In this document: in pieces, positions 3,018 through 46,199 of the stretch
Layout: every line of letters starts with the position of its first letter
Position numbering within the stretch: the stretch's first letter is position 1
IMG/VR virus record: IMGVR_UViG_3300035007_000011
Span: 1-55,543 of that record
DNA from: a virus
Taxonomy: Duplodnaviria; Caudoviricetes
Strand: one strand, 5' to 3'
Length of the DNA stretch: 55,543 bases
The notes under the pieces: model-generated
The model's database searches: none
Seen by the model: the letters and a program-made list of their open reading frames with translations, nothing else
What the model was told of the DNA's origin: nothing
Program-made: the position numbers and the translations under genes

Positions 3018-3027
3018 GGGAACTTTA
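3018..3027 (+). promoter_or_regulatory. GGGAAnnnTA late-promoter motif (portal)
   Basis: GGGAACTTTA, 8 nt before the portal ATG; the same motif precedes other virion units. Confidence 0.6.
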
Positions 3028-3035
3028 TAAATAAA

Positions 3036-4517
3036 ATGCCCACTCTCCAGTCCCTCAAGCGTTGCCACTCGGAACATCAAAATTACTGCGATTATTGGGG
3101 GTTGCTCACGGCTACCGTTGAGGGCGGGGATGCGATGACTGATGCAATGAAACGCAAGCTGTTGCCTAACCCAGATGGTAGACCCGAAGCGGTGATGAAA
3201 GAACGGGTAAAATTAGCTACCTATTGTAATAAAATCGCTCCGATACTTTCACGGTTTAACTCGGAACTCTTCAAAAACCCCGCCACACCGACCGGGAGTG
3301 ATGACCCTTTTTGGAGTGAGCAGTTTTTCAGTGGCGGTGCATTACTTGATGGTGACGACGACGGACGGGCTAGTTTTAACACCTTCCTGATGCAAGCGAT
3401 GATGATGGGGCTGACCACCGGGAAGGCAGTAGCTCAGATTGATACAAAAAGGGCAATCGGCGCTGTCAGCAAGGCACAGCAACGAGAATCCGGCGAACTT
3501 AACCCCTATGTTATTCTGCATCCGAGGTCAGCATTGTGGGATTGGGATAGCGGGAGGGATGGATTTGATTTTGTCAAGTTACATCAATTTCGATTGGTGC
3601 GATCAGGATGGGAGGCTACACCCACGCCGGAACACGTTTTCACAATCTATTACCGTGAAAATGGTGCAGTGTTCACATCTAAATATGTAGTGAGAAAGAT
3701 TGAGCGCGATTCTAAACCGCCACTTCCACAACCTTTCATTAGCTCGGTAACAGACCGCGATATATCTATAGAAGCAATTATAGAAGGGCAGCCGATATTT
3801 AATGTGGGGGGTAAATTTGAGTTTCCAATTGTGACTTTGACTTTACCCAAAGCACTGTGGATGGCTGCACAGTTGTTTGATTGTCAAAAAAGCTACTTCA
3901 CCCAAACAGCAGCGCTTGAATACGCCCTGTACTCCAACAACTTTGCAATGCCGGTGATAACTGGGGTGGATGACGATGAAGACCCATTGGGGGGACGGTT
4001 GATGGGGGACGGGTATTATTTGACTTTGAAAACTGGACAAGGGATAACCACATTTGAACGTAGTGGTGCAAGTATTCAAACTGCTATAGCTTACCGCGCC
4101 GAAGTAAAACGCGATATATATGACGTGCTGCAACAAATAGCGATGAGTGCTAGTGATGGGGCTTCAATTATTGCTCGTAGTGGTGAATCGAAATCCGAAG
4201 ACAGAAGACCTGAAGAGATTTTATTAGAACGCTACGGGCAAATTGTGAAGGAATTTCTTGTACAGGTGCTTAAGCCTGCCGCTATAGCACGGGGTGAAAT
4301 AGTGGATTGGGCGGTCACTGGATACGACGATTTTTTGGGGTTTAATATCACTGATTTGCTCACCGATATGGAGGGGATAGAGAAAGCTGCTATTCCATCA
4401 CCCACATTTAAAAAGGAAATTCAAAAGCACTTTGTTAAACGTGCAGCTAGGGTGTACGACCTCGATCAAAATGCAGTGGAGCGAAGTCTTGAAGAAATTG
4501 ATGGTATTGAGGTTTGA
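3036..4517 (+). CDS. Phage portal protein
   Basis: 493 aa; N-terminal YCNKIAPIL, C-terminal ARSGESKSEDRR..EEILL..YG pattern typical of siphophage portals. Confidence 0.75.
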   Translation: MPTLQSLKRCHSEHQNYCDYWGLLTATVEGGDAMTDAMKRKLLPNPDGRPEAVMKERVKLATYCNKIAPILSRFNSELFKNPATPTGSDDPFWSEQFFSGGALLDGDDDGRASFNTFLMQAMMMGLTTGKAVAQIDTKRAIGAVSKAQQRESGELNPYVILHPRSALWDWDSGRDGFDFVKLHQFRLVRSGWEATPTPEHVFTIYYRENGAVFTSKYVVRKIERDSKPPLPQPFISSVTDRDISIEAIIEGQPIFNVGGKFEFPIVTLTLPKALWMAAQLFDCQKSYFTQTAALEYALYSNNFAMPVITGVDDDEDPLGGRLMGDGYYLTLKTGQGITTFERSGASIQTAIAYRAEVKRDIYDVLQQIAMSASDGASIIARSGESKSEDRRPEEILLERYGQIVKEFLVQVLKPAAIARGEIVDWAVTGYDDFLGFNITDLLTDMEGIEKAAIPSPTFKKEIQKHFVKRAARVYDLDQNAVERSLEEIDGIEV

Positions 4518-4561
4518 AGCGTTACTATTCCTCGTCCATCTTCTTAGATGGGCGGGGTAGT

Positions 4562-4885
4562 TCATACATCAATTGCATCAGGTAAATAATTTGCCTTGAC
4601 GAAATTATAAAATAGTTCCAACCCAGTGCCATAAAATAAATTAGTCATCGGGTTCGTTGAATCTTCCGCAAGCGTCGGCATTTCCATTTCGTAGGCAAAG
4701 TTTCTAATCGCTTGCCCGTCAATCATTGCTTGACTTGCCCACAAAGAAAGTCGAAAGTAAATTGTTGAGCCATCTCTCCAAAGTGCTTCTGTTACACGCA
4801 AATATCCATCAACGATAGTGATACTACCGGATGGATTTTCTTCACTGATTGGGACTTCCCAAGTAACGGTTGCTTGAATAGACAT
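4562..4885 (-). CDS. Hypothetical protein coupled to fibre gene (possible fibre chaperone)
   Basis: ATG at 4885 overlaps the stop of the upstream gene. Confidence 0.5.
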   Translation of the reverse strand: MSIQATVTWEVPISEENPSGSITIVDGYLRVTEALWRDGSTIYFRLSLWASQAMIDGQAIRNFAYEMEMPTLAEDSTNPMTNLFYGTGLELFYNFVKANYLPDAIDV

Positions 4886-6360
4886 TATGGTGTTGCTCCT
4901 GCAATAATCGATATTGTTGGTGTACTCGTTCCTGTAAGGACTGTCAAGTTTGCCCTGACATAAAGGAAACATTTTGAAACAATAAATACTGCACTGCTAT
5001 TTGTGGGGTCGGTTAAGGTAGCAAGGTTATACCAATTTACACCACTGCTCGTCATGCTCCCCTCTATCGCGCAGCTAATTGTGGAAACCGTTCCGCCAGA
5101 AATAATTAATTGTGCTGTGAGATTGGAATAAGTGCTGTATAAATTATTGCTTGCTCCTGCACCTATTGCGGTAACTCCGGTTAGCAGATTTAAGTTTGCA
5201 GTTCCCGGTGCAACCAAGCTTCTACCTAAACCGGGAGCAGCATTACCAGCACTTCTGCGTCTATCCCAAGTAGCACCGTTATACGCATATCCTGCGGCGA
5301 TCGCTGCTGGGGAAGTAGGCAAAGTTAAAGATTCATTAAGTGCAACTGCTCCACTAAATTCTGTATCAACAGTATTTGAAGAGAGTGTTACAGATTGAGG
5401 ACTGAAAAACGTTACCGTCTGAACTGGCAGTGAAGATGGGGCATTGTTGCTACATTGAACAATTGCGGCTACAGTCCCCGAAGTGTAGCCAGTGACGCGA
5501 ACTCTAAAAAACCTTCCCTGCTTGGGAATCTGATATAAAGTGTTGAGGGTGATACTACTAAAAGCAATGGCGTTACCGTTGATCATGTAGTAGCCACCAT
5601 TCGTAAAGGTGATGCCATCGTTAGAAAACTGAACTTGAATGCCTGCACTCCAAGCTCCAGTCAATTGCAAAGTTATCCAACTAAAATCACTAACATCTAC
5701 AGATGCAATCACATCTGTGTTTATTGCATTGGCACTACCAGATAGATTAAGAATTGCACCAACAGTATTTGTTTTGATGCGATCGCTTACAAGGGCAGAA
5801 GGTAACTTTGCATTTACAGCAGCAATTGTCGTTTCTGTAGCAACAGCTCCAATTGTTCCTAAGTTTGCAGTAACAGCACCAGATATGGGTTGAGTCACAC
5901 CACTGCCATCAATTTTAAGGCGATCGCTGACAAGTGCAGAAGGCAACTTATTACTTATTGCAGATAAAGCAATATCTAATTTTACAGATAATAATCTTTT
6001 GACAAAAGCAAGGAAACTAAAAGTTCCAGTGTCGGTTGTCGCTGCTGTATCCGTCGTACTTCCAAAGTTTGTAGAAAATGCCCCGTCACTAGAAAGCGTT
6101 ACCGGGATTGATTGCGCCGCCGTTTTTGCTCCTAAAGTATTGGTGCGATCGCTTATTAATTGCTTTACCTCATCTTGTTTACTTCCAGTAGCCGGGTCGC
6201 TCGTCGTTTTACTATCAATCGAAGTTAACTTTGCTATCTCTTCTTGCTGATTAGCAGCACTGGCATCTCCACCGCCACCACTGCCCCCACCCCCAGAAAC
6301 CGGAAGCGGATTATCGGAAGTGAATTCCTTTCTAATGGCTTTTGCAATATCACTGGACAT
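4885..6360 (-). CDS. Fibre-like virion protein (head or tail fibre / receptor binding)
   Basis: S/T/A/G-rich, beta-rich C-terminus, internal repeat KLPSALVSDR x2, preceded by GGGCATAATA motif (6455-6464, minus strand). Confidence 0.55.
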   Translation of the reverse strand: MSSDIAKAIRKEFTSDNPLPVSGGGGSGGGGDASAANQQEEIAKLTSIDSKTTSDPATGSKQDEVKQLISDRTNTLGAKTAAQSIPVTLSSDGAFSTNFGSTTDTAATTDTGTFSFLAFVKRLLSVKLDIALSAISNKLPSALVSDRLKIDGSGVTQPISGAVTANLGTIGAVATETTIAAVNAKLPSALVSDRIKTNTVGAILNLSGSANAINTDVIASVDVSDFSWITLQLTGAWSAGIQVQFSNDGITFTNGGYYMINGNAIAFSSITLNTLYQIPKQGRFFRVRVTGYTSGTVAAIVQCSNNAPSSLPVQTVTFFSPQSVTLSSNTVDTEFSGAVALNESLTLPTSPAAIAAGYAYNGATWDRRRSAGNAAPGLGRSLVAPGTANLNLLTGVTAIGAGASNNLYSTYSNLTAQLIISGGTVSTISCAIEGSMTSSGVNWYNLATLTDPTNSSAVFIVSKCFLYVRANLTVLTGTSTPTISIIAGATP

Positions 6361-6380
6361 AATTTTATATATTAAGTTAC

Positions 6381-6449
6381 GAAGGAAGAAGTTCGTAGGA
6401 AGGAGGAAGAGGGATGAGTAACAAAGAAGTTTTCTAACCTTTCTTCCTT
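6381..6449. repeat. GAAGGAA-type heptamer array / imperfect hairpin, copy 1
   Basis: gaaggaaGAAGTTCGTAGGAAggaggaagagggatgag...ctttcttcctt; lies in the leader of the 4885-6360 gene. Confidence 0.8.
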
Positions 6450-6514
6450 ATTGTTATTATGCCCAGTAAAAAACCCTCGGTTGATTGAGGGTTGGCAGCG
6501 TCATGTATGTAACT

Positions 6515-11826: not shown

Positions 11827-12198
11827 TCATCCTAAGCAAAATCTATTACTCCTACTCCCGCCACTTTTAAACAAAATTCCCGTGTAGGGATAAAGCGATC
11901 GCCTTATCGCGGCTAGGTTTTTGTCTGGTCGTAATTGATATCCGTCTTTGTCGATGTTGCTGGGGTCGAGTGAAATGCACTCAAATTCTTCCAAAATCAC
12001 CCCGACCCGCTCGACTTGTGACGGCGACTCGTTGATTGATGCGATCGCACTAATCAGCGCCTGCCTTACTGGGGTGTTGGTGTTAAATAAATCAGGTTCC
12101 AAGCGAGAACTACCCTCACCACCAACCACAACAGTAGTATCGCGCTGAGTAATTTCATACACCTCGAATAGCAGGTTTGTTTGATGGTCGGTGAGCAT
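11827..12198 (-). CDS. Probable head-tail connector / head completion protein
   Basis: Last gene of the capsid unit; size and position only. Confidence 0.4.
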   Translation of the reverse strand: MLTDHQTNLLFEVYEITQRDTTVVVGGEGSSRLEPDLFNTNTPVRQALISAIASINESPSQVERVGVILEEFECISLDPSNIDKDGYQLRPDKNLAAIRRSLYPYTGILFKSGGSRSNRFCLG

Positions 12199-12479
12199 TA
12201 CACTTTTGGCGACCAGTGCCAGGTGCCAGGCTCGTTGGTATCTGAATAAATTTTGGATGTTGCCCAAAGTACGCGAGTACCGTCTTCGTAGTCGTTTGTG
12301 CTATCAGTGAAGACTTGCAGGTTGCAATATCCTTTGGCAATTAATTCCGGTGCAACATCGCGCCATACCCTGACAACAATAGCGGGTCTTACTTCTCCAG
12401 CATTGCGTCCATCTGGCAAAACATAGTGGACTATTCGCCCTTCAGTTAATCCGGGAAATGGTTGCACTGATTGAGTCAT
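12198..12479 (-). CDS. Conserved small phage protein
   Basis: GRIVHYVL..RPAIVVRV..NLQVF.D..GTWHW pattern common in phage head regions. Confidence 0.65.
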   Translation of the reverse strand: MTQSVQPFPGLTEGRIVHYVLPDGRNAGEVRPAIVVRVWRDVAPELIAKGYCNLQVFTDSTNDYEDGTRVLWATSKIYSDTNEPGTWHWSPKV

Positions 12480-12874
12480 GATGCTGTCTCCTTAGTGTTA
12501 ATTTGGTAACTAATTTGTGAATCCAGTGTTACCCAAGCGACACCCGGAATCTTGGCAATGAGGGCTTCCACCATTTTGTAAGGTCGTCCTGTTTGTAGTT
12601 CTTTTCCTTGGGCGGTCGATAAGCCTAAGCGCTCAGTTAACTCCTTGAGGGACGCAGAGTTAACCAAAATAAAGCCTGCCCCCGGTGGTTGGTTATCAAC
12701 TACTGGAGAATAGACTTTTTTTATTTCTTCCTCTCCTGACGGAGAGGCTGCGCCAACATCGGTTGTTACGGGTGGTGGCGGTTCTCTACGATAACCCTGT
12801 GCTAGAAAGTCGTTTTCCCGTCCTTCGGGAACATGCGTAGGCATACCGTACTGTGGTTCATAAAAAATTGGCAT
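12476..12874 (-). CDS. Capsid-adjacent protein with helix-hairpin-helix motif
   Basis: VNSASLKEL...GLSTAQGKEL..GRPY..VEAL (ComEA-like HhH). Confidence 0.6.
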   Translation of the reverse strand: MPIFYEPQYGMPTHVPEGRENDFLAQGYRREPPPPVTTDVGAASPSGEEEIKKVYSPVVDNQPPGAGFILVNSASLKELTERLGLSTAQGKELQTGRPYKMVEALIAKIPGVAWVTLDSQISYQINTKETAS

Positions 12875-12879
12875 ACAAA

Positions 12880-12899
12880 TGAAGACCAATTGGTCTTAA
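12880..12899. promoter_or_regulatory. Palindrome AAGACCAATTGGTCTT, copy 1
   Basis: 16-bp perfect core just after the coat stop; second copy at 43454-43475. Confidence 0.55.
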
Positions 12900-12906
12900 T
12901 AAAAGT

Positions 12907-14217
12907 TCATAAACTTAGAATTAAACCGCATTTACGAAAGTCGGTGATTTTAGAGCCAGTTAGCATATAAGCGGCGTTACGTTCGCTAACAGTTCCCAAG
13001 TCGTACTGCCCGGTGAAAACTTGAATACTTAGGCTAGTAGTTGGATCAACTATTGAGGCTGCGATCGCACCACTGCCGCGTCGGGGTTCAGCAATGCGGC
13101 GTGTAGCCATCACCAATCCTTCCATGTGGTTCACCGTATTAACTGAAGAGATGGTTGGGACACTAAATAAGTCTGTCCCTGGTGTGATATCTCCTACTGC
13201 TAACTTTGCGCCATTTGGAGCATAAGGAACAAGACTGATTACATTACCAGTAATTCGCAAAATCACACCGAATGCCGTTGCCTTAGTGCTAGTGCCAATT
13301 CTGGCTATTTGCCCAACTCCAACGTTTTGTAGTGCCGCACCTACAGTTAGGGTAAAATCTACTGCTCCAACGTATGTAATAGTAGCATTATCGGCATACC
13401 GAAAAGCAGTATTAGCCGCTACTGAGGCAATAGGTAAAGTAGCTTGCACACTGCCGGCGGTATCAAGGTCAGCAACTCCTGTTTGATTGCCTACTGTGTT
13501 ACTACCACCCACCATAAATCCGTAGCGTTCGACGAAATCGCCTAATTGTAAGCCGCGTTGCAGGAGATTCCCACCACCAATACTTGTGGCTGCAAAACCT
13601 GTAACTACTACTGAATCACCAAGGAAAGCACCTTTGGCAGTGGATGAAATAATGGTGTAACGCTTAGTTGGCGGTACGTTTTCTTTATCTAGGTAAACAT
13701 TTGCACCACGTAAGCCTTCATTACTGAAGTTGGTTAACTGCCCATTGCTATCTACACACGCACTAATGGCAATAGGGGGATGGTCGCCCAAATCCACGTT
13801 ACCAGTGGCGGCGATGTTCCAAGTGCGGAACTGCGAGTACATATAACTATCATTAGGCGTAACAATAGCATCAGCCACTTGTCCCGCCGTTTCCTCTAAA
13901 TAACGCTCCATTGTCTGCGTTGAGTCGTAGCCGTAGGACAAAAACCCGTCTGTCCATAGCCTTTCTAACTGAACATTTCCCGCGAAAAACTGAGCTTCAG
14001 TAAAGATGAAAGGTGCTACGCGGGGGTTGAGGTCGGTTGCTGTCCGGCGTTTGGGACGACGAATTTTTACCGAGTCGCCGCGTTCAAATGCCCCAGGCTC
14101 AAAATCCCGCACAGCAACGCGGGGATACATGACAGCGAGATTTAATTGAGTTAGGGCGCGTTGAGCGATCGCAGTTTCGAGTAGTGCGGTATTCGGTGAA
14201 AATGGCTGGGTTGGCAT
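12907..14217 (-). CDS. Major capsid protein (P22 coat-like)
   Basis: RDFEPGAFERGDSVKIRRP and LDKENVPPTKR motifs; follows the scaffold gene. Start reassigned to ATG 14217 because the track's upstream extension is translated repeat. Confidence 0.85.
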   Translation of the reverse strand: MPTQPFSPNTALLETAIAQRALTQLNLAVMYPRVAVRDFEPGAFERGDSVKIRRPKRRTATDLNPRVAPFIFTEAQFFAGNVQLERLWTDGFLSYGYDSTQTMERYLEETAGQVADAIVTPNDSYMYSQFRTWNIAATGNVDLGDHPPIAISACVDSNGQLTNFSNEGLRGANVYLDKENVPPTKRYTIISSTAKGAFLGDSVVVTGFAATSIGGGNLLQRGLQLGDFVERYGFMVGGSNTVGNQTGVADLDTAGSVQATLPIASVAANTAFRYADNATITYVGAVDFTLTVGAALQNVGVGQIARIGTSTKATAFGVILRITGNVISLVPYAPNGAKLAVGDITPGTDLFSVPTISSVNTVNHMEGLVMATRRIAEPRRGSGAIAASIVDPTTSLSIQVFTGQYDLGTVSERNAAYMLTGSKITDFRKCGLILSL

Positions 14218-14224
14218 GGTAAAT

Positions 14225-14311
14225 AAGGAAGAAGGAAGAAGGAAGAAGGAAGAAGGTTGAGGGAAGAATTTAATATCATCCAACTTCGGTCCTTCCTACT
14301 TCCTTCTTCCT
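14225..14311. repeat. Inverted heptamer arrays (GAAGGAA)n...(TTCCTTC)n, copy 2
   Basis: Fills the scaffold-coat intergenic gap and can form a hairpin. Confidence 0.85.
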
Positions 14312-14313
14312 TA

Positions 14314-15101: not shown

Positions 15102-15137
15102 GGGAACTCTAGTAATGGTACTTGGTTTAATATTCCC
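15102..15137. promoter_or_regulatory. Overlapping divergent pair of GGGAAnnnTA motifs
   Basis: GGGAACTCTA (+, 15102-15111) and GGGAATATTA (-, 15128-15137) within a 39-bp divergent gap. Confidence 0.65.
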
Positions 15138-30943: not shown

Positions 30944-31038
30944 AGAAATTGAATCTTACACAAAGTCACACAAGTTGAACTTGCTATTGCTTGTGCTTGC
31001 ATTTCCACTTCTACTATTAACTTTCCAAAATATTTTGT

Positions 31039-31692: not shown

Positions 31693-31694
31693 CT

Positions 31695-34966: not shown

Positions 34967-35148
34967 AAACGCTTTCATTTTTCAGGAATAAAAGCGCAGA
35001 GAATCAACTTAAAATGTTGCTTAAATCTTAACTATTTTCCCCAGAATTGTCAATAAAAAAGCACCTTTCGGTTAACGACAAAGGGTGCTTAATACGTGAA
35101 AAAAAACTAAATCCATTGCTTTAACCCTAACCTTCAAAACTCCAATCG

Positions 35149-35682
35149 TCAAGGAATTAAACTCGCTAACTTCTCTTCAATCCTCGCTATTTTCCGCTGC
35201 ATAATCGCTTCAGCTTCAGTTTGCTGAACTTGTGCAGATAGTCGCCCTAATTGACTTCGCACATCTTCAATTGCCTCACTATTGAGCGCGATCGCATCCC
35301 GCAAATTCTCTTCCGCTGCTTCCATACGCGCTAACATTAAAGAGTGTTTTTCGAGAAGTGCAATACTTTGCTCTTCTTTTCGTACTTGGTTTACTTGAAT
35401 TGACTGTTTTTTATCGCTTATCCAAGTAAACCAAGCGCTAAAAATTGAGAATAAAAGAGCTAATACTCCCACTGATTCAAGAAAGGCTTTCCAAGTTGTA
35501 AAGGGTAAGTAGATATCGAAAATGCGCTTTGCCAACCACATAGCGATCGCACAAAATATCAGAGTAAGAATTAACCAAACTAAATATTTTTCATACTTCG
35601 CGTATCTTTGATAAAGTCTCTTCCTCGAATTGGGAAAAATCTCGTTCGGATTCATATAATAAGATGATTTGTTCATTTCCAA
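35149..35682 (-). CDS. Two-TM + coiled-coil protein in the lysis cassette (holin/spanin-like)
   Basis: Two TM helices followed by a coiled coil; downstream of the endolysin. Confidence 0.5.
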   Translation of the reverse strand: MEMNKSSYYMNPNEIFPNSRKRLYQRYAKYEKYLVWLILTLIFCAIAMWLAKRIFDIYLPFTTWKAFLESVGVLALLFSIFSAWFTWISDKKQSIQVNQVRKEEQSIALLEKHSLMLARMEAAEENLRDAIALNSEAIEDVRSQLGRLSAQVQQTEAEAIMQRKIARIEEKLASLIP

Positions 35683-35992
35683 GAATTATTTCATCGCCAT
35701 GTTTTAGGCAAGCATATTCAACACGCCGACCATTTACAAAAATGCCATTAGCGCTCTTGTACTGCCCCCAGCCATCAATTAATTGGTAGCCAATTTCGTC
35801 TCGATACAAAACGCAATGTATCGCAGATAAATACTTGGCTTGGTTGAAGATAATTAAAGTCGGGGTTTGGTCAAATGCGATCGCTTTTTTTATGCACCTA
35901 TGCTTAATTCTGCCGATTATATAGTTACCATCTAGGACAAGACGAAATGAGTCGCTCCCGGACTCATTTATAAGTAGCGAGTGCCGTTTCAA
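35591..35992 (-). CDS. FHA-domain protein
   Basis: IGR, SAIHC, SANGIFVNG and LKHGDEIILG motifs. Confidence 0.85.
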   Translation of the reverse strand: MKRHSLLINESGSDSFRLVLDGNYIIGRIKHRCIKKAIAFDQTPTLIIFNQAKYLSAIHCVLYRDEIGYQLIDGWGQYKSANGIFVNGRRVEYACLKHGDEIILGNEQIILLYESERDFSQFEEETLSKIREV

Positions 35993-36000
35993 CTTACTCC

Positions 36001-36180
36001 TTATTCTTTTTTTGCGCTTTGAGCCAAGCCAGAAGCTCCAGCAATCGCTGTACCAGCCAGCCCAAGACCAGCTGCTGTTTTAGTCTCGCTTAAGTCAGAA
36101 AATATTACAATGATGCCAATTATTCCGCCAATTATTCCTAACAATAAAGGCGTTGAGGCTTGAATTAAATCAACTTTCAT
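36001..36180 (-). CDS. Holin-like small membrane protein (missing from track)
   Basis: Hand translation MKVDLIQASTPLLLGIIGGIIGIIVIFSDLSETKTAAGLGLAGTAIAGASGLAQSAKKE; overlaps the endolysin stop. Confidence 0.65.
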   Translation of the reverse strand: MKVDLIQASTPLLLGIIGGIIGIIVIFSDLSETKTAAGLGLAGTAIAGASGLAQSAKKE

Positions 36181-37001
36181 AGTTTGCTTCCATCCATAAT
36201 TGTTGTTAGAAATACATAATTATTGTTGGCTTGATAACGAGGGTCTGATTTGATAATTTTCATAAACTCTAAATGACCTCTTGTGGACTGACCCACTAAA
36301 CAGCCGGCACTAGCTCCATCGACTTGGGGCATGTCGTACCCCCAGTGTTGGTTTACACCAAAGTCTGAGCCGATCACAACAGTGTCGCCAGTGCGAAAAC
36401 CGTCTTTATTGCGATCACGATAGCCTTTAATCTCGCCAACCTGCACCAAGGCTTCATGGGTTTTATGCCAGCCGACAGACCAGGCTTTATACTGACTCAA
36501 GGCGACACGGAAAGCACCACCTGGATTAAGAGGATTGATTGTATATTTTAATCCTGGCTCTGTGGTTGCGTTCCAACAATTACTAATTTTAGGAATGCCG
36601 TTTTCAACCCGTAAAATCAAGCGCAAATCATTCCACTCATTCATGGTGTCGGCGTTGGGTTTGCCGTCTGAGTTGCAACCTTCCGCGTACACAATATTGT
36701 TGTGTCGTTCATCAATCCAGTAATTTTGAGCCAGCATATATTTAGCGATACGGGCTGCAAAATCGCCCTTGCTTAAGTCAAGTTTGGGCTGAGGTAAGGA
36801 CTTAAGTTGCAGCAACTCAGGTGTTAAAACTTGACTTTTAGTAATTTGAAGTAATTCAGCTATGGCACATCTGGTTTGCGCCCCTACTTTTCCGTCAGCA
36901 GTCCCAGATAATAATTTTAAATTAATCAATATTGATTGCACAAATGCAGCTAATTCTTTGTCAGCAGCAATTGCTTCAATATCTAAAGTATTTAATTTCA
37001 T
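36177..37001 (-). CDS. Putative endolysin (PG-binding domain + HxxxSAGC YkuD-like domain)
   Basis: VQSIL..ADGKVGAQTR (PG-binding); GVNQHWG..ASAGCLV. Confidence 0.7.
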   Translation of the reverse strand: MKLNTLDIEAIAADKELAAFVQSILINLKLLSGTADGKVGAQTRCAIAELLQITKSQVLTPELLQLKSLPQPKLDLSKGDFAARIAKYMLAQNYWIDERHNNIVYAEGCNSDGKPNADTMNEWNDLRLILRVENGIPKISNCWNATTEPGLKYTINPLNPGGAFRVALSQYKAWSVGWHKTHEALVQVGEIKGYRDRNKDGFRTGDTVVIGSDFGVNQHWGYDMPQVDGASAGCLVGQSTRGHLEFMKIIKSDPRYQANNNYVFLTTIMDGSKL

Positions 37002-37185
37002 AACGTCACCATGCTATAAGAGTTAGAATCAGCATGGCGCTCACACGCCCTTTTATGATGGCAAATGCTTTTGAATAAGGCATCGTGGCTGTTACTGAAA
37101 GCAAAAGCTCAGGATTGCCTGAGCTTTTGGTATTAATATTGACGAAATATAAAGAAATTAAAAAGGCTTATTACTAACTTGATAC

Positions 37186-38079
37186 TTACTCCACAATCCC
37201 ACTCGCTGTCATCGTAGTAGATCCGCTTGCTACTTGTGCTTGGATTCTGACTGATTCCATCCCTTCGCAGCGCATTCTGAACCAGCCATTGCCACCCGCA
37301 GGAATGGTAATAATAGTCCCGCTACTCACGCCACTGTTGATAATTTCAGCGCTGCCATTGTTAGCGGTTTTACCGTTACTGGTTGTAAAGTCGGCGGTAG
37401 TAGATGCAACTGCATTCCAAATAGTCAAAGCGCTATTAAACCGTGCTTGCACTTGTAAACCTGAAAGTGCAGTAGCACCAGTATTCTGTAGTTGTACACC
37501 CAAAGTATTTTTACCCCGACAATCAAAGGTGATTACGGTCGTGAGTATGGTAGTAATGGTTACAGCACTAGCTGTTTGTGCTTCTAAAAAAAAGGTTTCT
37601 GCTACACTACGCACCATAGCCATCAAAGAACCGGAACGCGCCGCAGTGTCTCCAGTAATGCCCAGTGATCGCAACTTGGCGTGAATTGACCCCGTACTAG
37701 ATGCGGTATCAGAAGTTGTACCAAGCCCTTCAGCCAAAGCACGTAGCCGTGCCATGAGCGTACCCGTAACTGACAAGGCATCGGAAGTTGCACCGATTGT
37801 GTCGGCAATTAGCAGCCGCAATTTGGCATGAATCGAGCCTGTAGCAGAGGAAGCGTCCGTTGCATCCCCTAACAGGTTTTGCCAAAGACCGCGAATTATT
37901 GAAGCAATTGTGCCGTTATCGCTAGGGCTATTTATAGGTGAATTGTTGGTTTCACCCAGGCGGTCATAAGTTCCTTGGTCAGCAAAACTAAAAACATCGG
38001 GGTCGCCAGTTGTCCCATCTCCAGAGGCGGATTTGCGCTGGCGTAATGCACCGGAACCATCAATATAAGAAACACTCAT
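37186..38079 (-). CDS. Tail fibre-like protein with tandem repeats
   Basis: About 4 repeats of the type G.T.D.....GS/T..A.LR; directly after gpJ. Confidence 0.6.
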   Translation of the reverse strand: MSVSYIDGSGALRQRKSASGDGTTGDPDVFSFADQGTYDRLGETNNSPINSPSDNGTIASIIRGLWQNLLGDATDASSATGSIHAKLRLLIADTIGATSDALSVTGTLMARLRALAEGLGTTSDTASSTGSIHAKLRSLGITGDTAARSGSLMAMVRSVAETFFLEAQTASAVTITTILTTVITFDCRGKNTLGVQLQNTGATALSGLQVQARFNSALTIWNAVASTTADFTTSNGKTANNGSAEIINSGVSSGTIITIPAGGNGWFRMRCEGMESVRIQAQVASGSTTMTASGIVE

Positions 38080-40382
38080 TAAAATTCAGTCGCGAAAATA
38101 GAAGTTAATTGGTCAGTAAAGACAGCTGAATAATTAACGTCGCTGAAGGATATCGGATAAGATTCCACCCAGCGAGAAGATTTCCCGTTAATATCTAATG
38201 CTGCTACCCTCACATAGTATTTCCCAAATTGCAGTCCTTCAAATTGGGTGTTTGTATTATCAACAGTTCGCGTTTCCACCCAATCGCCATCATCACCATA
38301 TCTGTATTCAACAAAGTAACTGGTGATAAATGGGTCGCGTTGCCCATTATTTAACGGGTATTGCCAAGATGCATTTAATGTGTATATGAAAAAGTCTCCA
38401 CTATTAATTGCTCGGTAAGATAGCAATATATTTCTAGGAGCATTTACAACGAGAGGCACTCTATTAATTGTCGGGCGCGGTGTCAGTGACCAGCCTTGCT
38501 CAATTGAGTTGTATTTATCACTTCGATATTCTAAAGCGGTGATTTCGTGCAGCATCTCTCCACTTCCCGGTGCTGGTAAGCGGTTAAGGACGCGAAATAA
38601 TTGCGGCTGCACAGTAGTGCTGGCTAGTATCCAATTACTCTCGGCAGGTGGGGGGTCGCTACTGAAAGAATTTAAATTTAGGGTGGTATGAGAGCCTGGG
38701 GCATTTGTAACGGTACGCTCAGTTACCGTCCCATCGCCCATCATCACTGTCAGGGTATAGGTTTCGCCAGAATTTAGGACCACTGGATTATCTAAGGTTA
38801 CGCTGCCACGAGTAGATGAAGCGATTAACCCGCCGTAACGAATATCGGCGCGTTTTGCGTCAGAAATTCTGATAATGTCGCCCGGTTTTGTGTAGGCACC
38901 GTAGGCACGGACTCGGAAGGTTACAGTTTCTGTTTCTAAATGTTCTGTTAAAAGCGCCGCTAGTCCAGCGCGTCGCGCTTGCCCTCTGGAAGTGCAAGCA
39001 AAGGAAGACATTTCCAATTCCCGTACACCATATTTAGCAATGCCTTCAGGGTCTTCTACTGTTTCGATGGTTTGTTTATAGAAGTCGTCGGGGTCAACCC
39101 ATGTTACCAATGCAATGGTATGTCTGCTTTTTAGCCCGGTGCGGCTATAAGAAAACATGCCATTTTCGATATCAGCTTGGGTAAACTGCGCTACTGGGGA
39201 GCCTGGTTTATCAGCTGCAAAAGAAATTGCACCATTCATCCAGTAAGAAAAGCCACGAAAAATTGAGCGGATAGATTCGATAACTTTGTAAGCCTCTTCT
39301 TTCCCTTCAATTAGTACGTGGCATTGAAAACGGTGTTCTGTACCGCCTTCACCATTGGGAACATATTCGTTGCAGTACTGTGAAATTTCGTAAAGCGCCC
39401 ATTTATCGATTTGGGATTGGTTGATGTAACGTCCCAATCCGTAGCGAGAATTGGTAACGAGGTCATACAAAATCCAGGCGGGGTCAGCAACTGCTACAGA
39501 TGGGATGTAAAAAGTGCCGTCCCAAATGCCGTTGTATTGTAGTCCCCTTGTGGCTGTGGGTGTAGCGTTGGTAGGGATAGCGATTTTGCGCCCCGCAAGT
39601 TTGAGCGAGATTTGCGGAATTGATTCAAATTGTGCTACATCAAAACGGAAAGCAAATAGGGCGCTATTGGGATAACGCAATTTGGTTTCAGTAGCTTCAA
39701 TTAATGTGCGCCATGTCAATGCGCGTTGGTAGCGCGTGGTATCAGCGTCTTGAGGGGTAACACGCTCTACACGCACAGAAAAATCGTTAACTGTACCACC
39801 TAAGTTATTTACTGGAAAATTATATTCAAATTCTGTGAGTGTTGAGTAACGCCCTTTGATTGTTTGGTCAAGGCGCTGTACGAAAGCGCCTTGACCTTCT
39901 TTTACATAAATCCGAAATTGGATTTTTGACCCCAACACTCCACCTTTGGGAGGATATTCTTGTAATACGATAGCAATCCGAACACGGATAATATCAAGGT
40001 TAGCATTAATTATGGAGCGGGTGAGGGGAAACTGTTGCTTGATTTCTGCCCCAACATTGGTTTCTGACGAAATCTCATCAGAAAAACCCGCTAACCTATC
40101 TTGCCCTTGGGTTCCACTCCTCCAATCCCAAGTAAAAGATTGGAAGTTTTGACTACCATCGCTATTTTGTGTCGGTGTTTCGTCGAAGTAAATTGATTGT
40201 GTCCCATTAGCAAGTCCTTCGATTTCCCCTTCAGATACAATACCCAGCATCTGAGCAATTGAAGTACTGCGCCCGCTGTCTGCCTCTTCTTTGGGCTTTG
40301 ACTTCTTGCCTAGTATCCCCCCACTACCCGATAAGTTTAATACTTGCGCCCCTTTAGGGCGGCTTCGTTTTTTCTTGGGCAT
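38079..40382 (-). CDS. Central tail fibre / host specificity protein (lambda gpJ-like)
   Basis: SEGEIEGL, DPAWILYD..RYGLG, IDKWALY..YC, FACTSRGQARR, PGDIIRISD; C-terminal Fn3. Confidence 0.92.
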   Translation of the reverse strand: MPKKKRSRPKGAQVLNLSGSGGILGKKSKPKEEADSGRSTSIAQMLGIVSEGEIEGLANGTQSIYFDETPTQNSDGSQNFQSFTWDWRSGTQGQDRLAGFSDEISSETNVGAEIKQQFPLTRSIINANLDIIRVRIAIVLQEYPPKGGVLGSKIQFRIYVKEGQGAFVQRLDQTIKGRYSTLTEFEYNFPVNNLGGTVNDFSVRVERVTPQDADTTRYQRALTWRTLIEATETKLRYPNSALFAFRFDVAQFESIPQISLKLAGRKIAIPTNATPTATRGLQYNGIWDGTFYIPSVAVADPAWILYDLVTNSRYGLGRYINQSQIDKWALYEISQYCNEYVPNGEGGTEHRFQCHVLIEGKEEAYKVIESIRSIFRGFSYWMNGAISFAADKPGSPVAQFTQADIENGMFSYSRTGLKSRHTIALVTWVDPDDFYKQTIETVEDPEGIAKYGVRELEMSSFACTSRGQARRAGLAALLTEHLETETVTFRVRAYGAYTKPGDIIRISDAKRADIRYGGLIASSTRGSVTLDNPVVLNSGETYTLTVMMGDGTVTERTVTNAPGSHTTLNLNSFSSDPPPAESNWILASTTVQPQLFRVLNRLPAPGSGEMLHEITALEYRSDKYNSIEQGWSLTPRPTINRVPLVVNAPRNILLSYRAINSGDFFIYTLNASWQYPLNNGQRDPFITSYFVEYRYGDDGDWVETRTVDNTNTQFEGLQFGKYYVRVAALDINGKSSRWVESYPISFSDVNYSAVFTDQLTSIFATEF

Positions 40383-40384
40383 TG

Positions 40385-40948
40385 CTACTTAGTCAAATAC
40401 GTGACTATCTTTGCCGAAACCAAATACATCCCAACAACAACCACCCCATAAATTATTGGTACTCTCCCCCCTTCTTTGGTTGTAGTCGAAGGGTTGCCAA
40501 AACCGAGAGATTTTTTGCTTTCTTTGGCATCAGGCGAACTTTGACGACCAAATAAGGAAGATATTCCACCTAAAAGCATTGCACCACCAGTAAGGATAAG
40601 GGTTGTGGCAGAAATGCCCAAAAATCCCACTCCCGTCAGTCCTAGCCCGATTAATGCCACACCTCCAATAATCCGCCCGACTGTCCCCGCACCAGCAATA
40701 ACGGGAATAATACGAATTGACCGCACCTGCGGAGATATCGGACTACAAAGTTGGGTATCATCTATTTCTTGATACCCTACTTTTATTTGATAGTTCACAC
40801 CCCGGTGTGCAGCTTCGTATAAATAAGTTGCAAATCTTGGGAAGTTTGCACGTAATGAGGCAACTGCTTCGGCAACACTATTAACATCGACTGTAATTGT
40901 ATCTATAAATATATCAGCGAGTTCACCGCACAAAGTAACAGTAATCAT
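40385..40948 (-). CDS. Tail assembly protein (lambda gpI-like)
   Basis: IRIIPVIAGAG and EGGRVPIIYG motifs; start reassigned to ATG 40948. Confidence 0.88.
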   Translation of the reverse strand: MITVTLCGELADIFIDTITVDVNSVAEAVASLRANFPRFATYLYEAAHRGVNYQIKVGYQEIDDTQLCSPISPQVRSIRIIPVIAGAGTVGRIIGGVALIGLGLTGVGFLGISATTLILTGGAMLLGGISSLFGRQSSPDAKESKKSLGFGNPSTTTKEGGRVPIIYGVVVVGMYLVSAKIVTYLTK

Positions 40949-40954: not shown

Positions 40955-41056
40955 TGAAGGAAGAAGGAAGACGGAAGAGGGAAGAAGGTTGAGGATCATA
41001 GGGAAGATTTAAAATAAATTCAACCTTCTTCCTACTTCCTCCGAACTTCTTCCTTC
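40955..41056. repeat. Inverted heptamer arrays, copy 3, between divergent tail genes
   Basis: (gaaggaa-like)n gaaggttga ... tcaaccttc (ttcctac/ttccttc)n. Confidence 0.85.
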
Positions 41057-41059: not shown

Positions 41060-41707
41060 ATGAGCTACCCTATACTTCCCTTAACACCGACATGGGGCAA
41101 TCCAGAACAAGAACAGGCTGATGTTGCTAAAACCAAATATGGCAAGGCTGGTGTTGAACAGCGCGATTTTATTGGGATTAATCCCCTTTCTACAAGTTGG
41201 GATATCAGCGTTAATATTCGCAACTTTCAAGAAGTTGATGATTTTTTGCTTTCGCGTCGTGGACAACCATTTCGCCTAAGTTTGGATGGAGGAATTACCG
41301 ACGATGGAAAGTTCTACATTTGTACGGAGTGGCAAATACAGCAATTAGGGATAGGAGCAGGAAGCTTCAATGCCAAGATTAATCAGGTGCGAAGATTACA
41401 ACCATTGCCTTTCGCGGGGGAGGGAAGTCCAGGTGTAGCGTACAGAATAATGTATAAATTTGAGATTACCGGGGACGGGGGACCTTATACCTTCTTTGAT
41501 AATCAAATCATTGATCTATGGGGTGTCATTGGTGAATTCCAGACAATACGGAATCAAGGAACCATTAATCTATTTTTAGAATGTCAAGGCGATCTTTATA
41601 ATCCTTATACACCATCTCCTGTGTTAGTTGCTTTAACAGGGTATTCAGGGTTTACTCCTGAATCGGATATTAGGAATATTAGCATTATTTCTATTAATCC
41701 ACTATGA
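41060..41707 (+). CDS. Minor tail protein, gpM-like with C-terminal extension
   Basis: KYGKAGVEQR..GINP..W..VDDFL..R.GQPF..YIC.EW. Confidence 0.75.
   Translation: MSYPILPLTPTWGNPEQEQADVAKTKYGKAGVEQRDFIGINPLSTSWDISVNIRNFQEVDDFLLSRRGQPFRLSLDGGITDDGKFYICTEWQIQQLGIGAGSFNAKINQVRRLQPLPFAGEGSPGVAYRIMYKFEITGDGGPYTFFDNQIIDLWGVIGEFQTIRNQGTINLFLECQGDLYNPYTPSPVLVALTGYSGFTPESDIRNISIISINPL
41071..41080 (-). promoter_or_regulatory. GGGAAnnnTA motif for the gpI-gpJ-fibre-lysis unit
   Basis: GGGAAGTATA on the minus strand. Confidence 0.5.
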
Positions 41708-41743
41708 AGTTCGTAGGAAGAAGGAAGAGGGAAGAAGGATGAG
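41706..41743. repeat. Heptamer array, left flank of four-helix-bundle gene
   Basis: GAAGTTCGTAGGAAgaaggaagagggaagaaggatgag. Confidence 0.85.
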
Positions 41744-42097
41744 TTAGTTGCTTTGTAACTTTTGAAGAGTAGATACCATAATACGCTGTAAGTCATCTAC
41801 TTCTTTCAAAACAGCAGTAAACAAATCAGGATTAGCTAACCCTACTTCTTTGGCAATAATTAATTGTGTGTCTAGTTCCCTTAAACTGCCTAACGCAATT
41901 TGCAGAAACCTTATATATTCTGCTTTATGTACCCTTCCGTAGCCCTCGGCTATATTTGAAGGGACAGAAACCGCAGAACGCCTGATTTGACTAGTTAAAC
42001 CATATATCTCAGAGCTAGGGAAATGCTTAGTTATTTCATAACAAGAGATGGAAAGCTGAATACCGCGCTTCCAAATAAACTGTTCTCTGTGACTCAT
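41744..42097 (-). CDS. Four-helix-bundle protein (23S-IVP / bAvd-like family)
   Basis: FPSSEIYGLTSQIRRSAVSVPSNIAEGYGR..FLQIALGSLRELDTQL. Confidence 0.93.
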   Translation of the reverse strand: MSHREQFIWKRGIQLSISCYEITKHFPSSEIYGLTSQIRRSAVSVPSNIAEGYGRVHKAEYIRFLQIALGSLRELDTQLIIAKEVGLANPDLFTAVLKEVDDLQRIMVSTLQKLQSN

Positions 42098-42104
42098 GAT
42101 GTTT

Positions 42105-42176
42105 GAAGGAAGAAGTTAGAAGTAGTTCTAATTTTATCATCCTTCTTCCTCCTTCCTTCTTCCCTCTTCCTTCCTT
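42105..42176. repeat. Heptamer array, right flank of four-helix-bundle gene (inverted relative to left flank)
   Basis: catccttcttcctccttccttcttccctcttccttcctt immediately before the gpL ATG. Confidence 0.85.
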
Positions 42177-43506: not shown

Positions 43507-43516
43507 GGGAACAATA
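43507..43516 (+). promoter_or_regulatory. GGGAAnnnTA motif (tail tube unit)
   Basis: GGGAACAATA. Confidence 0.6.
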
Positions 43517-43548: not shown

Positions 43549-43582
43549 TCCTTCTTCCTACTTCCTACTTCCTACGAACTTC
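43549..43582. repeat. Heptamer array in tail-tube leader
   Basis: ccttc(ttcctac)x2 TTCCTACGAACTTC, 6 nt before the ATG. Confidence 0.8.
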
Positions 43583-43588: not shown

Positions 43589-44302
43589 ATGCCACAGACC
43601 ATTAACCGCGCCAGTGTAGTAGAAACTACCCTTGGTATCACCTTTCAAATAGGCGAACTGCCTACACAACAAGTAGGAGCAGTAATTGTAACCAACCGCA
43701 ACGTACTCAGTTACACAATTACCGCATCAGCTGCGGCTCTTGCCACTGCTGAGTCGCTTTCTGTGCAAGCGACACCCGTACTTTTGGATGCCGGAACATT
43801 GCTTAATTTCGGGGGTGTGGTTGCCACGCTTTCAAATGCCGCCGCTGCCGGCAGTACTGCATTGCAATTACTGCCATTGCCGGGAAGCATTGGTAATGGT
43901 GCAACTGCTACTACCAAAGCACTGGTTTTTGTTTCTGGATGCACGGATGCCACGGTTAGCCCAGAAATCAAAAATGTTGACACCACTAACTACCTTTCTG
44001 GATTGGGGATGGAGAAGGTGACAACGGGTAATTCCAAAAAAATGCAGTTGAACTTTAACTTAATTTATGGCGATCGCGGAGGTAACATCCTCAGAAAAAT
44101 TGCTTACGATAAAACTTATGCAGGGCGTGAATTCTACTTCTACTTGCTTTTTCCTAGTGGTGAAGCGCACGAAGGAATAGCCTTATTGGAATCAGCATCT
44201 CCCACGCAGCAAGTGCAAGATAAGCGCGCATTTTCCTGTAATGCCCAAGTACAAGGCGATACCTATATTTACACACCACCGGCATCCGTTAACATCTTCT
44301 AA
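43589..44302 (+). CDS. Major tail tube protein
   Basis: 237 aa with VDTTNY..G..K motif; upstream of chaperones and TMP. Confidence 0.7.
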   Translation: MPQTINRASVVETTLGITFQIGELPTQQVGAVIVTNRNVLSYTITASAAALATAESLSVQATPVLLDAGTLLNFGGVVATLSNAAAAGSTALQLLPLPGSIGNGATATTKALVFVSGCTDATVSPEIKNVDTTNYLSGLGMEKVTTGNSKKMQLNFNLIYGDRGGNILRKIAYDKTYAGREFYFYLLFPSGEAHEGIALLESASPTQQVQDKRAFSCNAQVQGDTYIYTPPASVNIF

Positions 44303-44304
44303 TT

Positions 44305-44889
44305 ATGGCAATCACACTTGAACTTACGCGCCCTAAATCTGTTACAACTAATGCCCAAAACACTGTGGTATCAATTGGGACTATTGTAGAAACGGATGCA
44401 TCGGAAGAAAGCTTTTTCATCCCCATAACCAGCGCTTCAACCGATCCACCTTCTTTCACTGTTGCCAACTCCACCACAATTAGTGGCAACACAAGCGTGA
44501 CAACCACCAATAATGGTTTCCAAAATGTCAAAATCGGTGATGTGGTAACGGGTACTGGTATTGCGGCTAGTTCCACGGTAACGGCTAAGGTAAACAATAA
44601 TACGATTACGCTCAATAACAATGCCACCGCATCAGGTACGGTGACGCTAACTTTTGACCCACCCGCTGCCATACCGACACTGTACGCGCTGAAAGTCACT
44701 CATACTAAGGCGGGTTCTGTTTTTGGGATAAACGTATCTCTTTATACTTATGATGGGACGCTAGGGGGGGTAGCGGGAACGGCGGCGAATGCGAGCAAGA
44801 CTATTAATTTAGTATCAACTGACGGACAGCCTATACAAATTAATATGGATTCTTTCTTAACTAACTTGCGTGTTCCCCAGTCGCCGTAA
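44305..44889 (+). CDS. Tail-associated protein (beta-rich decoration)
   Basis: T/S/N-rich; IGDVVTGTGI..TV..ITL..NATASG. Confidence 0.55.
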   Translation: MAITLELTRPKSVTTNAQNTVVSIGTIVETDASEESFFIPITSASTDPPSFTVANSTTISGNTSVTTTNNGFQNVKIGDVVTGTGIAASSTVTAKVNNNTITLNNNATASGTVTLTFDPPAAIPTLYALKVTHTKAGSVFGINVSLYTYDGTLGGVAGTAANASKTINLVSTDGQPIQINMDSFLTNLRVPQSP

Positions 44890-45151
44890 ATTGAAGCACA
44901 ATTATTTGCATTCAAATGGGCATACCGTAGCCCTTATTAATTGCAAACTGCACTCCGAGTATTTGACTTGTGGTGCAGCTTATTTTGTAGCAGGATTGCC
45001 GGAACGTATGCTTTTATACAGTTTAGATGGCAATAAAATCTGTTTGATTGTTATTCCTAAAAGTGTTAGAAATAATCCTACATATACCCGTTTACTTTCA
45101 CCACTAGACGATATCAAATATTATTATGCAGAACCCTTGGGGAGTGCCTGA
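44870..45151 (+). CDS. Hypothetical tail-region protein
   Basis: Fills the gap between tail genes; start uncertain. Confidence 0.45.
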   Translation: MFPSRRKLKHNYLHSNGHTVALINCKLHSEYLTCGAAYFVAGLPERMLLYSLDGNKICLIVIPKSVRNNPTYTRLLSPLDDIKYYYAEPLGSA

Positions 45152-45908
45152 AGTTGTTGATGTAGCTGGATTTCCACTGCCGAAGATGGGCGGTTTGAAT
45201 CCAGAAGAAAAAGATTATATGGCTAATAAAATTCGGAATGTGCAGTTTCAAGAAATTGCACCTTTGGCTGAAATTGCGGATTTAGTTGTCGAGAAAGAAA
45301 AGATTTCCAAGATTGAGGCTATCTCGTTAATTCGCAAAACTCTTGAAGGTAATGCGGGTAAAAGTGAAGAGGAAATTGATAGATTACTAGCATTCGCCAT
45401 TGAATACCAACACGAGCTAGGGCGGATTAAAAAGCCTGATATGATGGTAGAGAGGCAGTCGCAAGAAGTCGCGGTCATGATACTGCGATCGCGGCTAAAA
45501 CCTGAGTGGATTTTAGAAAATATTGAAAATCTCCGAGCTTCTTTTCGGTGTTCACTTGATAAAGAACAGTGCGCTTTACTTATGGCAACACCTGAAGAGA
45601 ATTGGTTGAGTGATGCCACGCGGGAGAAAGTTATTAGGCAGATTGTGCGGAAGTTACCCGAAAATATCTATGCACAAATTGCCACATTTGCATTAGGGGA
45701 AGAGAAGGAATGGGTAGAACTTCCAATCATCACTTTTGAATCGGAGGATGTAACGCTGGGGGAGCGCTCCAAAGGCTTCGAGAATATCAAGAAGTCGTCG
45801 AAAAAGAACGCGAATTCTACAGAGAAGCCTACTACACCATCCAATATTTCGGAGTCACAGACCCTAGATTCCACGCCCGAAGTTTCCACCGTGTCAGCTG
45901 TTGGGTGA
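45126..45908 (+). CDS. Tail assembly chaperone (gpG-like)
   Basis: Position before TMP; slippery G GGG GAG at 45758-45764. Confidence 0.7.
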   Translation: MQNPWGVPEVVDVAGFPLPKMGGLNPEEKDYMANKIRNVQFQEIAPLAEIADLVVEKEKISKIEAISLIRKTLEGNAGKSEEEIDRLLAFAIEYQHELGRIKKPDMMVERQSQEVAVMILRSRLKPEWILENIENLRASFRCSLDKEQCALLMATPEENWLSDATREKVIRQIVRKLPENIYAQIATFALGEEKEWVELPIITFESEDVTLGERSKGFENIKKSSKKNANSTEKPTTPSNISESQTLDSTPEVSTVSAVG

Positions 45909-46189
45909 TTCGCGAGATGGTTAACAGTTTGTACAAGCAATATAAGCTACATGCAAATGTAGTTACTTCCACTGTTGCGAAAATAGGCACGATGCTGGAT
46001 ATGTCAGGTAAGGCAACCATGCAAGAATTTCTACCGTTTCCTGACAGTACGCAAGAACGCAAGGCTTTACCAGTGTCAAAAGAGACGGCGCGGGTTTATC
46101 TGGAGTTGCGATCACAAGGGCTAATTCCCACGCGGGTATTAGGGGCGTTTGCGGATATTGATGTTGAGATGGAGAAAATAGCCTTCTAA
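45758..46189 (+). CDS. gpGT-like -1 frameshift extension
   Basis: The -1 frame is open from 45740 (after TGA at 45737) to 46189 and includes track ORF 45905-46189. Confidence 0.65.
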   Translation, partial: GGALQRLREYQEVVEKEREFYREAYYTIQYFGVTDPRFHARSFHRVSCWVIREMVNSLYKQYKLHANVVTSTVAKIGTMLDMSGKATMQEFLPFPDSTQERKALPVSKETARVYLELRSQGLIPTRVLGAFADIDVEMEKIAF

Positions 46190-46199
46190 GGGAATCATA
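46190..46199 (+). promoter_or_regulatory. GGGAAnnnTA motif (tape measure)
   Basis: GGGAATCATA, 23 nt before the ATG. Confidence 0.6.

Follow-up and report, generated by a model that had tools for sequence, protein, structure and literature searches.

The stretch of DNA analysed here, called the window throughout, is the 55,543-nt virus record IMGVR_UViG_3300035007_000011. The contig from which it comes is 103,860 nt long, with the window at its start, and belongs to a host genome of 6.5 Mb and 74 contigs. Judging from its genes, the window holds a lambda-like siphovirus prophage of a filamentous cyanobacterium. The virion genes of this prophage do not form one operon; they are divided over many short units on both strands. 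The word GGGAAnnnTA precedes the portal, scaffold-like, major head, tube, tape-measure and gpI-J-lysis units and three small units (Table 1). This motif is probably the -10 element of the late promoters of the prophage, most likely read by the group-3 sigma factor that the prophage itself encodes at 25069-26190.

The exact word GGGAANNNTA occurs 17 times in the window, against 7.31±2.85 times in 100 dinucleotide shuffles (largest count 15; none reaches 17). Nine copies lie in sense orientation within 120 nt upstream of one of the 69 curated gene starts. In 2000 shuffles of the same upstream windows only 0.73±0.83 such copies were found (maximum 5; 0/2000 reach nine), and the binomial P for nine copies is 8e-7. 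The copy at 41071 can be counted as a tenth: it falls 122 nt from the re-set start of the gpI-like gene because a repeat array was inserted in the leader. Besides the nine, the window has eight copies, a number in line with the density across the host genome (0.157 per kb). Elsewhere in that genome the placing of the word is hardly biased: of 1010 copies, 104 are sense-upstream within 150 nt and 74 antisense.

An earlier note, made from the letters of the window, had placed GGGAAnnnTA before most virion units. This is borne out: the motif is orientation-specific, positionally enriched over shuffled controls and kept in six related elements. The eight exact copies listed there (3018, 15102, 15128-15137, 21614-21623, 27146, 41071-41080, 43507 and 46190) were all found at the places and on the strands given, while a ninth, before the major head gene (14319-14328, minus strand), had been missed. 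The statement that terL, gpK and gene 26208 have no copy upstream also holds in the window. As a class, the one-mismatch copies of the note did not stand up. At most one mismatch, 185 matches were counted against 160±11 in shuffles; once the exact copies (17) are taken off, 168 remain where about 153 would be expected, which is near background. The one-mismatch copy at 41001(+) sits in a repeat insertion that the relatives do not have, and the one at 43001(+) has no counterpart in them. The sole listed one-mismatch copy noted as kept, in one relative (A, see below), is GGGCATAATA at 6455-6464(-). It comes after a terminator-like hairpin and before gene 4885-6360, and may represent a promoter variant in which the fourth position is C. 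Early and accessory units had been assigned to promoters of the type TTGACA-17-TAnnAT. No enrichment of sigma-70-like matches was found for the region 18400-37200 (34 against 42.6±4.9 expected); one perfect TTGACA-17-TATAAT, with TG before the -10, lies in this early/accessory region at 28041-28069(+).

The relatives were found via the sigma protein. Two are prophages, A in a metagenome-assembled genome of Nostoc sp. NMS2 and B in Aetokthonos hydrillicola CCALA 1050, with sigma proteins 79% and 74% identical to that of the window. The others are viral contigs with a sigma 52-55% identical over the full length, four of which were fetched whole. A scan of viral contigs with the single sigma protein gave no relative; the scan with an alignment found them. 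This sigma is present in all seven motif-carrying elements. Syntenic segments of A and B are 65-89% identical in nucleotides, and the synonymous divergence dS of the sigma gene is about 1, thus near-saturated. At such a distance, spacer DNA free of constraint is expected to have lost its similarity. Several sites do have flanks that fail to align, yet GGGAAnnnT is kept there. The sigma gene itself is under purifying selection, with dN/dS of 0.13-0.16 against A and B.

Across the window, the two prophages and the four viral contigs, GGGAAnnnT was found within 135 nt upstream in 27/27 orthologues from seven late groups: portal (3/3), major head (3/3), scaffold-position gene (4/4), 15139 gene (2/2), gpI-like (5/5), tube (5/5) and tape measure (5/5). 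The motif also precedes 4/6 orthologues of gene 27218, in one of them within coding sequence, and 2/7 orthologues of terL. No upstream copy was found among the orthologues of the sigma gene, g26208, g20096 and gpL (0/7 each) or of gpK and gpM-43087 (0/5 each). The sigma gene thus lies outside the motif-bearing set, while the seven late virion groups lie inside. Sense-upstream copies are likewise absent from 17 distant-control viral loci (0/34), compared with 10/36 in nine loci that have full-length sigma homologues.

At the level of single sites, a portal mRNA made from the portal copy would be nearly leaderless. Homology to A begins exactly at this motif. The copy at 14319 is identical in A and B; its coding flank makes this conservation less informative. 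Before the orthologue of the 413-aa gene, B carries GGGAAATTTA at another spacing, followed by a GTG start. The motif at 15128 persists in A, B and viral contig V203, the last with both copies of the divergent junction back to back. At 21614 the motif is kept in B, and A carries GGGAAATCTA. Upstream of gene 27218, contigs V203 and V205 have GGGAAAAAT at 9-14 nt, while A and V204 have no copy. The gpI site retains GGGAAnnAT in A, B, V204 and V205, at a distance of 21-26 nt from the start of gpI; here too the flank is coding.

Column statistics were drawn from the 34 motif-bearing sites among 41 orthologous late-gene upstream regions. In these 34 of 41 regions, GGG runs straight into a hexamer whose second base is A and whose sixth is T, a pattern that also defines the search word. 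The tenth base is A at 25/34 sites. The middle columns vary: column 6 has A15 C9 G3 T7, column 7 has A16 C5 G2 T11 and column 8 has A12 C11 T11, and TAC fills the middle columns at 0/34 sites. No conserved -35 was found, every upstream column of the 34 sites staying below 0.35 bit. From the motif T to the start codon there are 20-30 nt at 20/34 sites. Five sites have a distance of 8-9 nt, in the context AAAATAAAATGCC, and longer distances go with inserted repeats. The spacing of 8-9 nt leaves no room for a further -10, so that the motif itself would be the start-proximal promoter element. It also suggests that the late mRNAs from these sites are leaderless or nearly so. Many late genes start with ATGCC (Met-Pro) in the same context (window 3027-3038; V203, V204, V205 and V206).

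This arrangement resembles a known promoter class of the presumed host group. The J-box of the Nostoc punctiforme SigJ regulon, GGGaAtacT, is presented in excerpts of Gonzalez et al. 2019 (PMC6495340) as an extended -10 in which GGG is absolutely conserved and A and T are nearly invariant, with a weak, AT-rich -35. According to the same excerpts, the gvpA start site fits the -10 position of the J-box, and the J-box is found before pilB in many cyanobacteria. The host genome has a perfect J-box, GGGAATACT, 35 nt before its pilB. The likeness drawn in the earlier note therefore stands in part: the invariant GGG, A and T positions are all kept in the prophage motif, but the weakly conserved 'tac' is not, and the preferred letters a-t-a-c are not matched. 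The missing -35 at the prophage sites agrees with what the excerpts say of J-box promoters and counts in favour of an extended -10.

The candidate reader is a protein of 373 residues that lacks region 1.1. It comprises sigma2 (28-97), sigma3 helices (about 104-146) and sigma4 (170-218), followed by an IS1 InsA-like zinc ribbon with a helix-turn-helix (HTH; about 224-311) and a C-terminal helical hairpin (321-369). Pfam recognizes regions 2 and 4, and PHROG returns sigma families. The AlphaFold2 model, a confident one with a predicted local distance difference test (pLDDT) score of 87.8, shows the same succession: sigma2, a three-helix sigma3, sigma4, and then zinc ribbon, HTH and helical hairpin. 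Its best fold matches are SigB, SigD and SigS-type chains, with about 245 columns of the SigB and SigS-type chains covered. Like the host SigF/J-type sigmas, the protein keeps an IPR stretch after region 2.4.

The earlier note had called this protein a sigma of the SigB/F/J type, which proved correct as to the relationship but not as to membership. Its best NCBIfam model is NF005644, the cyanobacterial SigF subfamily, with 141.9 bits at a cut-off of 261; TIGR02980 gives 100.4 bits at a cut-off of 234. The best host matches are the two NF005644 paralogues, one of them 43% identical over 152 aa and the other 28% over 237 aa. These two host SigF/J-type sigmas score above the NF005644 cut-off, and databases name them no more precisely than SigF or sigma-B. 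In a quick tree (70 rows, midpoint root) the phage sigma fell in a clade of 13 rows (SH-aLRT support 95), including the relatives and ten database representatives. This clade is separate from a 12-row set in which both host paralogues sit (support 86), and far removed from the group-1/2 and extracytoplasmic function (ECF) sigmas of the host. By its sequence, the product of 25069-26190 is thus a group-3-type sigma related to SigF/SigJ and not a member of the subfamily.

Among 1.84 billion representatives only ten matched the phage sigma at E <= 1e-30, and several of them share its tail. A match to IS1 transposase, in its N-terminal part, covers residues 227-311. The fusion of a sigma to an InsA-like zinc ribbon and HTH is an unusual architecture. 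An ECF-type sigma on another host contig (L011:799-1779, minus strand) has the same kind of tail, scoring 89 bits to the IS1 transposase model and showing 31% identity to the phage tail over 83 aa. Together with the tail of the phage sigma (25069-25510, residues ~224-373), this gives sigma-InsA fusions in two sigma groups of one genome.

The sigma gene belongs to a motif-free, non-virion operon beside ParB-like and PAPS-reductase-like genes. In the proposed mechanism, a host sigma would transcribe this operon after induction. The newly made phage sigma would then redirect the host core RNA polymerase to the eight or nine scattered virion units. There it would recognize the motif as an extended -10, with GGG as the extension followed by the AAnnnT hexamer, and need no conserved -35; transcription would start about 7 nt after the motif T. 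Such a two-step sigma programme would explain how virion genes that are split into many short units on both strands are switched on jointly.

That the motif is a promoter, and that it is read by the phage sigma rather than a host sigma, is the most likely interpretation of these sequence patterns. Several points weigh against it. Orthologous sites are not independent, so that the counts given above show conservation and are not a probability. The sites at 14319, 27146 and 41071 lie in coding sequence, where conservation is ambiguous, and the window has no copy before terL, gpL, gpK or the two gpM-like genes. The Cylindrospermopsis phage Cr-LKS4 has a related sigma without enrichment of the motif, and the link between sigma and motif thus stops at the close clade. 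Moreover, the motif shares exactly those positions that are invariant in the J-box as excerpted, and a perfect J-box stands before host pilB; SigJ or SigF could therefore read the sites without any phage sigma. This last point leads to the main rival, in which the motif is a true late promoter but one that SigJ (or SigF) of the host recognizes. In that case the virion genes would form part of the host J-box regulon and the phage sigma would act elsewhere, for instance on early or middle genes, in host takeover or in immunity; or both sigmas would read the sites. The two host sigmas above the NF005644 cut-off could provide such a reader, the phage sigma itself falls outside their subfamily, and the case of Cr-LKS4 points the same way. 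However, the phage sigma would be left without a visible target, as no other promoter-like word was found over-represented upstream of the genes except for the heptamer repeats described below. The A at the tenth base and the missing preference for 'tac' hint at a distinct specificity, and the word has little positional bias elsewhere in the host genome. A host sigma as the reader, alone or besides the phage sigma, is accordingly considered somewhat unlikely.

It is very unlikely that the motif is no -10 at all and instead acts as a signal in the RNA or as the site of a non-sigma regulator, such as an activator of late genes, antiterminators that load there or the sigma's own InsA-like tail binding DNA independently. 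Facing copies at two divergent junctions of the window, 15102/15128 and 21584 (with one mismatch)/21614, could mimic a dimer site, and the sigma carries an extra domain predicted to be of a DNA-binding type. Yet most copies are single and without dyad, and the pair in V203 stands back to back instead of facing, which argues against a dimer-binding site. The distance from motif to start codon, ranging from 8 to about 120 nt, rules out a role in ribosome binding, and at 8-9 nt there is no space for a separate -10 between motif and ATG. Finally, the excess could have no function and come from base composition, coding constraint or repeats, considering that three sites overlap coding sequence and that GGGAA also occurs within the heptamer arrays. 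This is barely credible: the observed counts are not reached by the shuffle controls, conservation extends to intergenic flanks that cannot be aligned, at dS ~1, and the copies are all in sense orientation, with none before the sigma gene or the two non-virion genes next to it.

Since the word overlaps the invariant core of hormogonium promoters, the question is raised whether prophage induction and host cell differentiation are coupled. In the most far-reaching version, a lineage of temperate siphoviruses infecting heterocystous cyanobacteria runs all its virion genes from the promoter class that serves hormogonium (motile filament) development in the host, with its own SigF/J-like sigma and an InsA-type DNA-binding tail, and cross-talk is possible both ways; this is distinctly doubtful. 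If true, host SigJ, made at the onset of hormogonium differentiation, could fire the virion genes, and phage would be released from dispersing filaments. The phage sigma could in turn switch on J-box genes of the host, such as those for type IV pili. The proposals of the earlier note, late genes fired by hormogonium differentiation or host motility turned on by the phage sigma, are speculative. A single transcription signal may serve both the making of virus and the development of the host. A literature search over titles and abstract openings returned no link of a phage sigma to J-box promoters and no sigma-InsA fusion. To our knowledge, almost nothing is known about late-gene timing in temperate phages of filamentous cyanobacteria. 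The locus offers a concrete, conserved promoter word and a candidate sigma, both of which are open to standard assays.

The features of the window are collected in Table 1. Three start codons were re-set by comparison with the relatives, namely those of the major head, gpI-like and 413-aa genes. The gene names metallopeptidase, protamine-like and gp10-like used in the earlier note find no support in Pfam or PHROG. Other identifiable prophage genes are RecT-like, exonuclease, ParB-like, PAPS-reductase-like, gpL-like, gpK-like and two gpM-like genes, and a host-type glutamine amidotransferase gene lies at the right end of the window (53669-55543).

Table 1. Motif copies and genes of the window (A and B, related prophages; V204 and V205, related viral contigs)
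Feature	Position	Strand	Match or basis	Remarks
Motif GGGAACTTTA	3018-3027	+		T 9 nt before portal ATG 3036; kept in A and B, unalignable flanks
Motif GGGAAACCTA	14319-14328	-		About 100 nt upstream of ATG 14219 (major head), in last codons of scaffold-position gene
Motif GGGAACTCTA	15102-15111	+		Before 413-aa gene, ATG 15139
Motif GGGAATATTA	15128-15137	-		Before scaffold-position gene 14314-15099; faces 15102 copy across 39-nt divergent gap
Motif GGGAAACCTA	21614-21623	-		32 nt before Arg/Gly-rich gene 21114-21581
Motif GGGAAATTTA, uncertain copy	26469-26478	+		Inside gene 26208-26576; conserved but coding (G-K-F), so promoter and coding constraint are not separable
Motif GGGAACATTA	27146-27155	+		Within 3' end of HTH_17 gene, 62 nt before gene 27218-27508
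Motif GGGAAGTATA	41071-41080	-		Before gpI-like / J / 37186-38079 / lysin-like unit, likely start ATG 40948; overlaps first codons of divergent gpM-like gene
Motif GGGAACAATA	43507-43516	+		Before tail tube unit 43589-46189; kept in A, B, V204 and V205, unalignable flanks
Motif GGGAATCATA	46190-46199	+		23 nt before tape measure gene; kept in A, B, V204 and V205
Portal gene	3036-4517	+	phrog_145, E 4e-23	
Head unit	11827-15099	-	phrog_283, weak (major head)	Scaffold-position gene, major head gene, two small genes
Major head gene, weak match	12907-14283	-		Likely start ATG 14219
Scaffold-position gene	14314-15099	-	Position in head unit	
413-aa gene	Start re-set to ATG 15139	+		
terL	16945-18432			
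Arg/Gly-rich gene	21114-21581	-		
Phage sigma factor	25069-26190	-	Pfam, PHROG, NCBIfam, AlphaFold2	373 aa
Gene 26208-26576	26208-26576			Non-virion neighbour of sigma gene
Gene 27218-27508	27218-27508			62 nt 3' of motif 27146
gpI-like / J-like / lysis unit	36001-40948	-	phrog_32, phrog_31, phrog_33083	gpI-like, J-like, unknown 37186-38079, endolysin-like and small genes
J-like gene	38079-40382	-		
Tube unit and tape measure gene	43589-52606	+	phrog_820 (weak), phrog_9959	
Tail tube gene, weak match	43589-44302	+		Tail tube unit 43589-46189
Tape measure gene	46223-52606	+		2127-aa protein

Around the motif sites, some additional elements were observed. A 12-nt near-perfect palindrome, TGTAATGTTACA, is located at 21598-21609, exactly between the facing motif copies of the 21581/21625 divergent junction, and may be an operator. 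Related TGTAAT..ATTACA palindromes occur 3' of the tape measure motif in A and B. As a general second element the palindrome TGTAAY..RTTACA was rejected, since the window has a single copy. Heptamer arrays of the GGAAGAA / CTTCCTT type lie at 6374-6419, 14225-14312, 40956-41056, 41715-41743, 42104-42176 and 43549-43575. They are found in late-gene leaders, between motif and start codon, and some form long purine/pyrimidine hairpins. Seven of the 21 heptamer arrays of the 6.5-Mb genome fall in the window. They are missing at the same spots in A, and in B one lies upstream, not downstream, of the tube promoter. The arrays could be mobile short repeats or leader elements that act on mRNA stability or translation.

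Several insertions are present as well. An IS200/IS605 pair at 918-2903, with genes for a TnpB/Cas12f-like OrfB and a Y1 transposase, stops immediately to the left of the portal motif. The genome has this element once, leaving no other copy by which to delimit it. An inserted DDE transposase gene (18539-19459) adjoins terL. Between the tail genes, 41744-42097(-) encodes a member of the 23S rRNA intervening-sequence protein family (PF05635, E 9e-36), with a weak match to Avd of diversity-generating retroelements. Upstream of the gpK-like gene, about 53520-53600 resembles the 3' part of a tRNA, and a similar tRNA-like stretch precedes the gpK homologue of V203. It may be an attachment-site remnant at the right end of the prophage; scans of the window for tRNA (ARAGORN) and with Rfam gave no match.

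Phage-encoded late sigma factors are already known, and the new aspects here, absent from the titles and abstract openings searched, are the host group, a promoter word that overlaps a developmental class of the host and the InsA-like tail. Known examples are gp34/gp33 of Bacillus phage SPO1, gp55 of T4 and gp36 of phiEco32, and SigF/G-like sigma genes of Bacillus phages turned up in the database search. As in these systems, a phage gene would replace the promoter-recognition subunit of the host, and the late genes would have their own promoter class, in this case judged from sequence alone. In contrast to them, the promoter class resembles a developmental one of the host, and the late genes are scattered over many units on both strands. 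In Firmicutes, -10 elements of the GGG(T/A)A type are typical of SigB/SigF-type sigmas. Compared with the NF005644 SigF/SigJ subfamily, the phage sigma has the same three-domain build, this subfamily as its best-scoring model and the close match to one host paralogue, but it differs in its score below the cut-off, its separate clade, a shorter region 3.2 linker and the tail of about 150 aa with InsA-like zinc ribbon, HTH and helices. With the J-box, as delimited by the excerpts of PMC6495340, the prophage sites share GGG directly before a hexamer with invariant A (second) and T (sixth), a weak or absent -35 and a scattered distribution before many units; they differ in the missing 'tac' preference, the frequent A at the tenth base, virion genes as targets and an adjoining sigma that is not SigJ. 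Cr-LKS4 (OQ625504.1) is the nearest isolated phage. Its related sigma shows 38.5% identity over residues 8-220, but is 225 aa long and lacks the tail. GGGAANNNTA is not enriched in Cr-LKS4 (9 copies in 100 kb), and no GGGAA-type word is among its top upstream k-mers. It does share the lambda-like but scrambled order of the tail genes, in which M and I-J are divergent, and this indicates that the scrambling in the window belongs to the phage lineage and is not a sign of decay.

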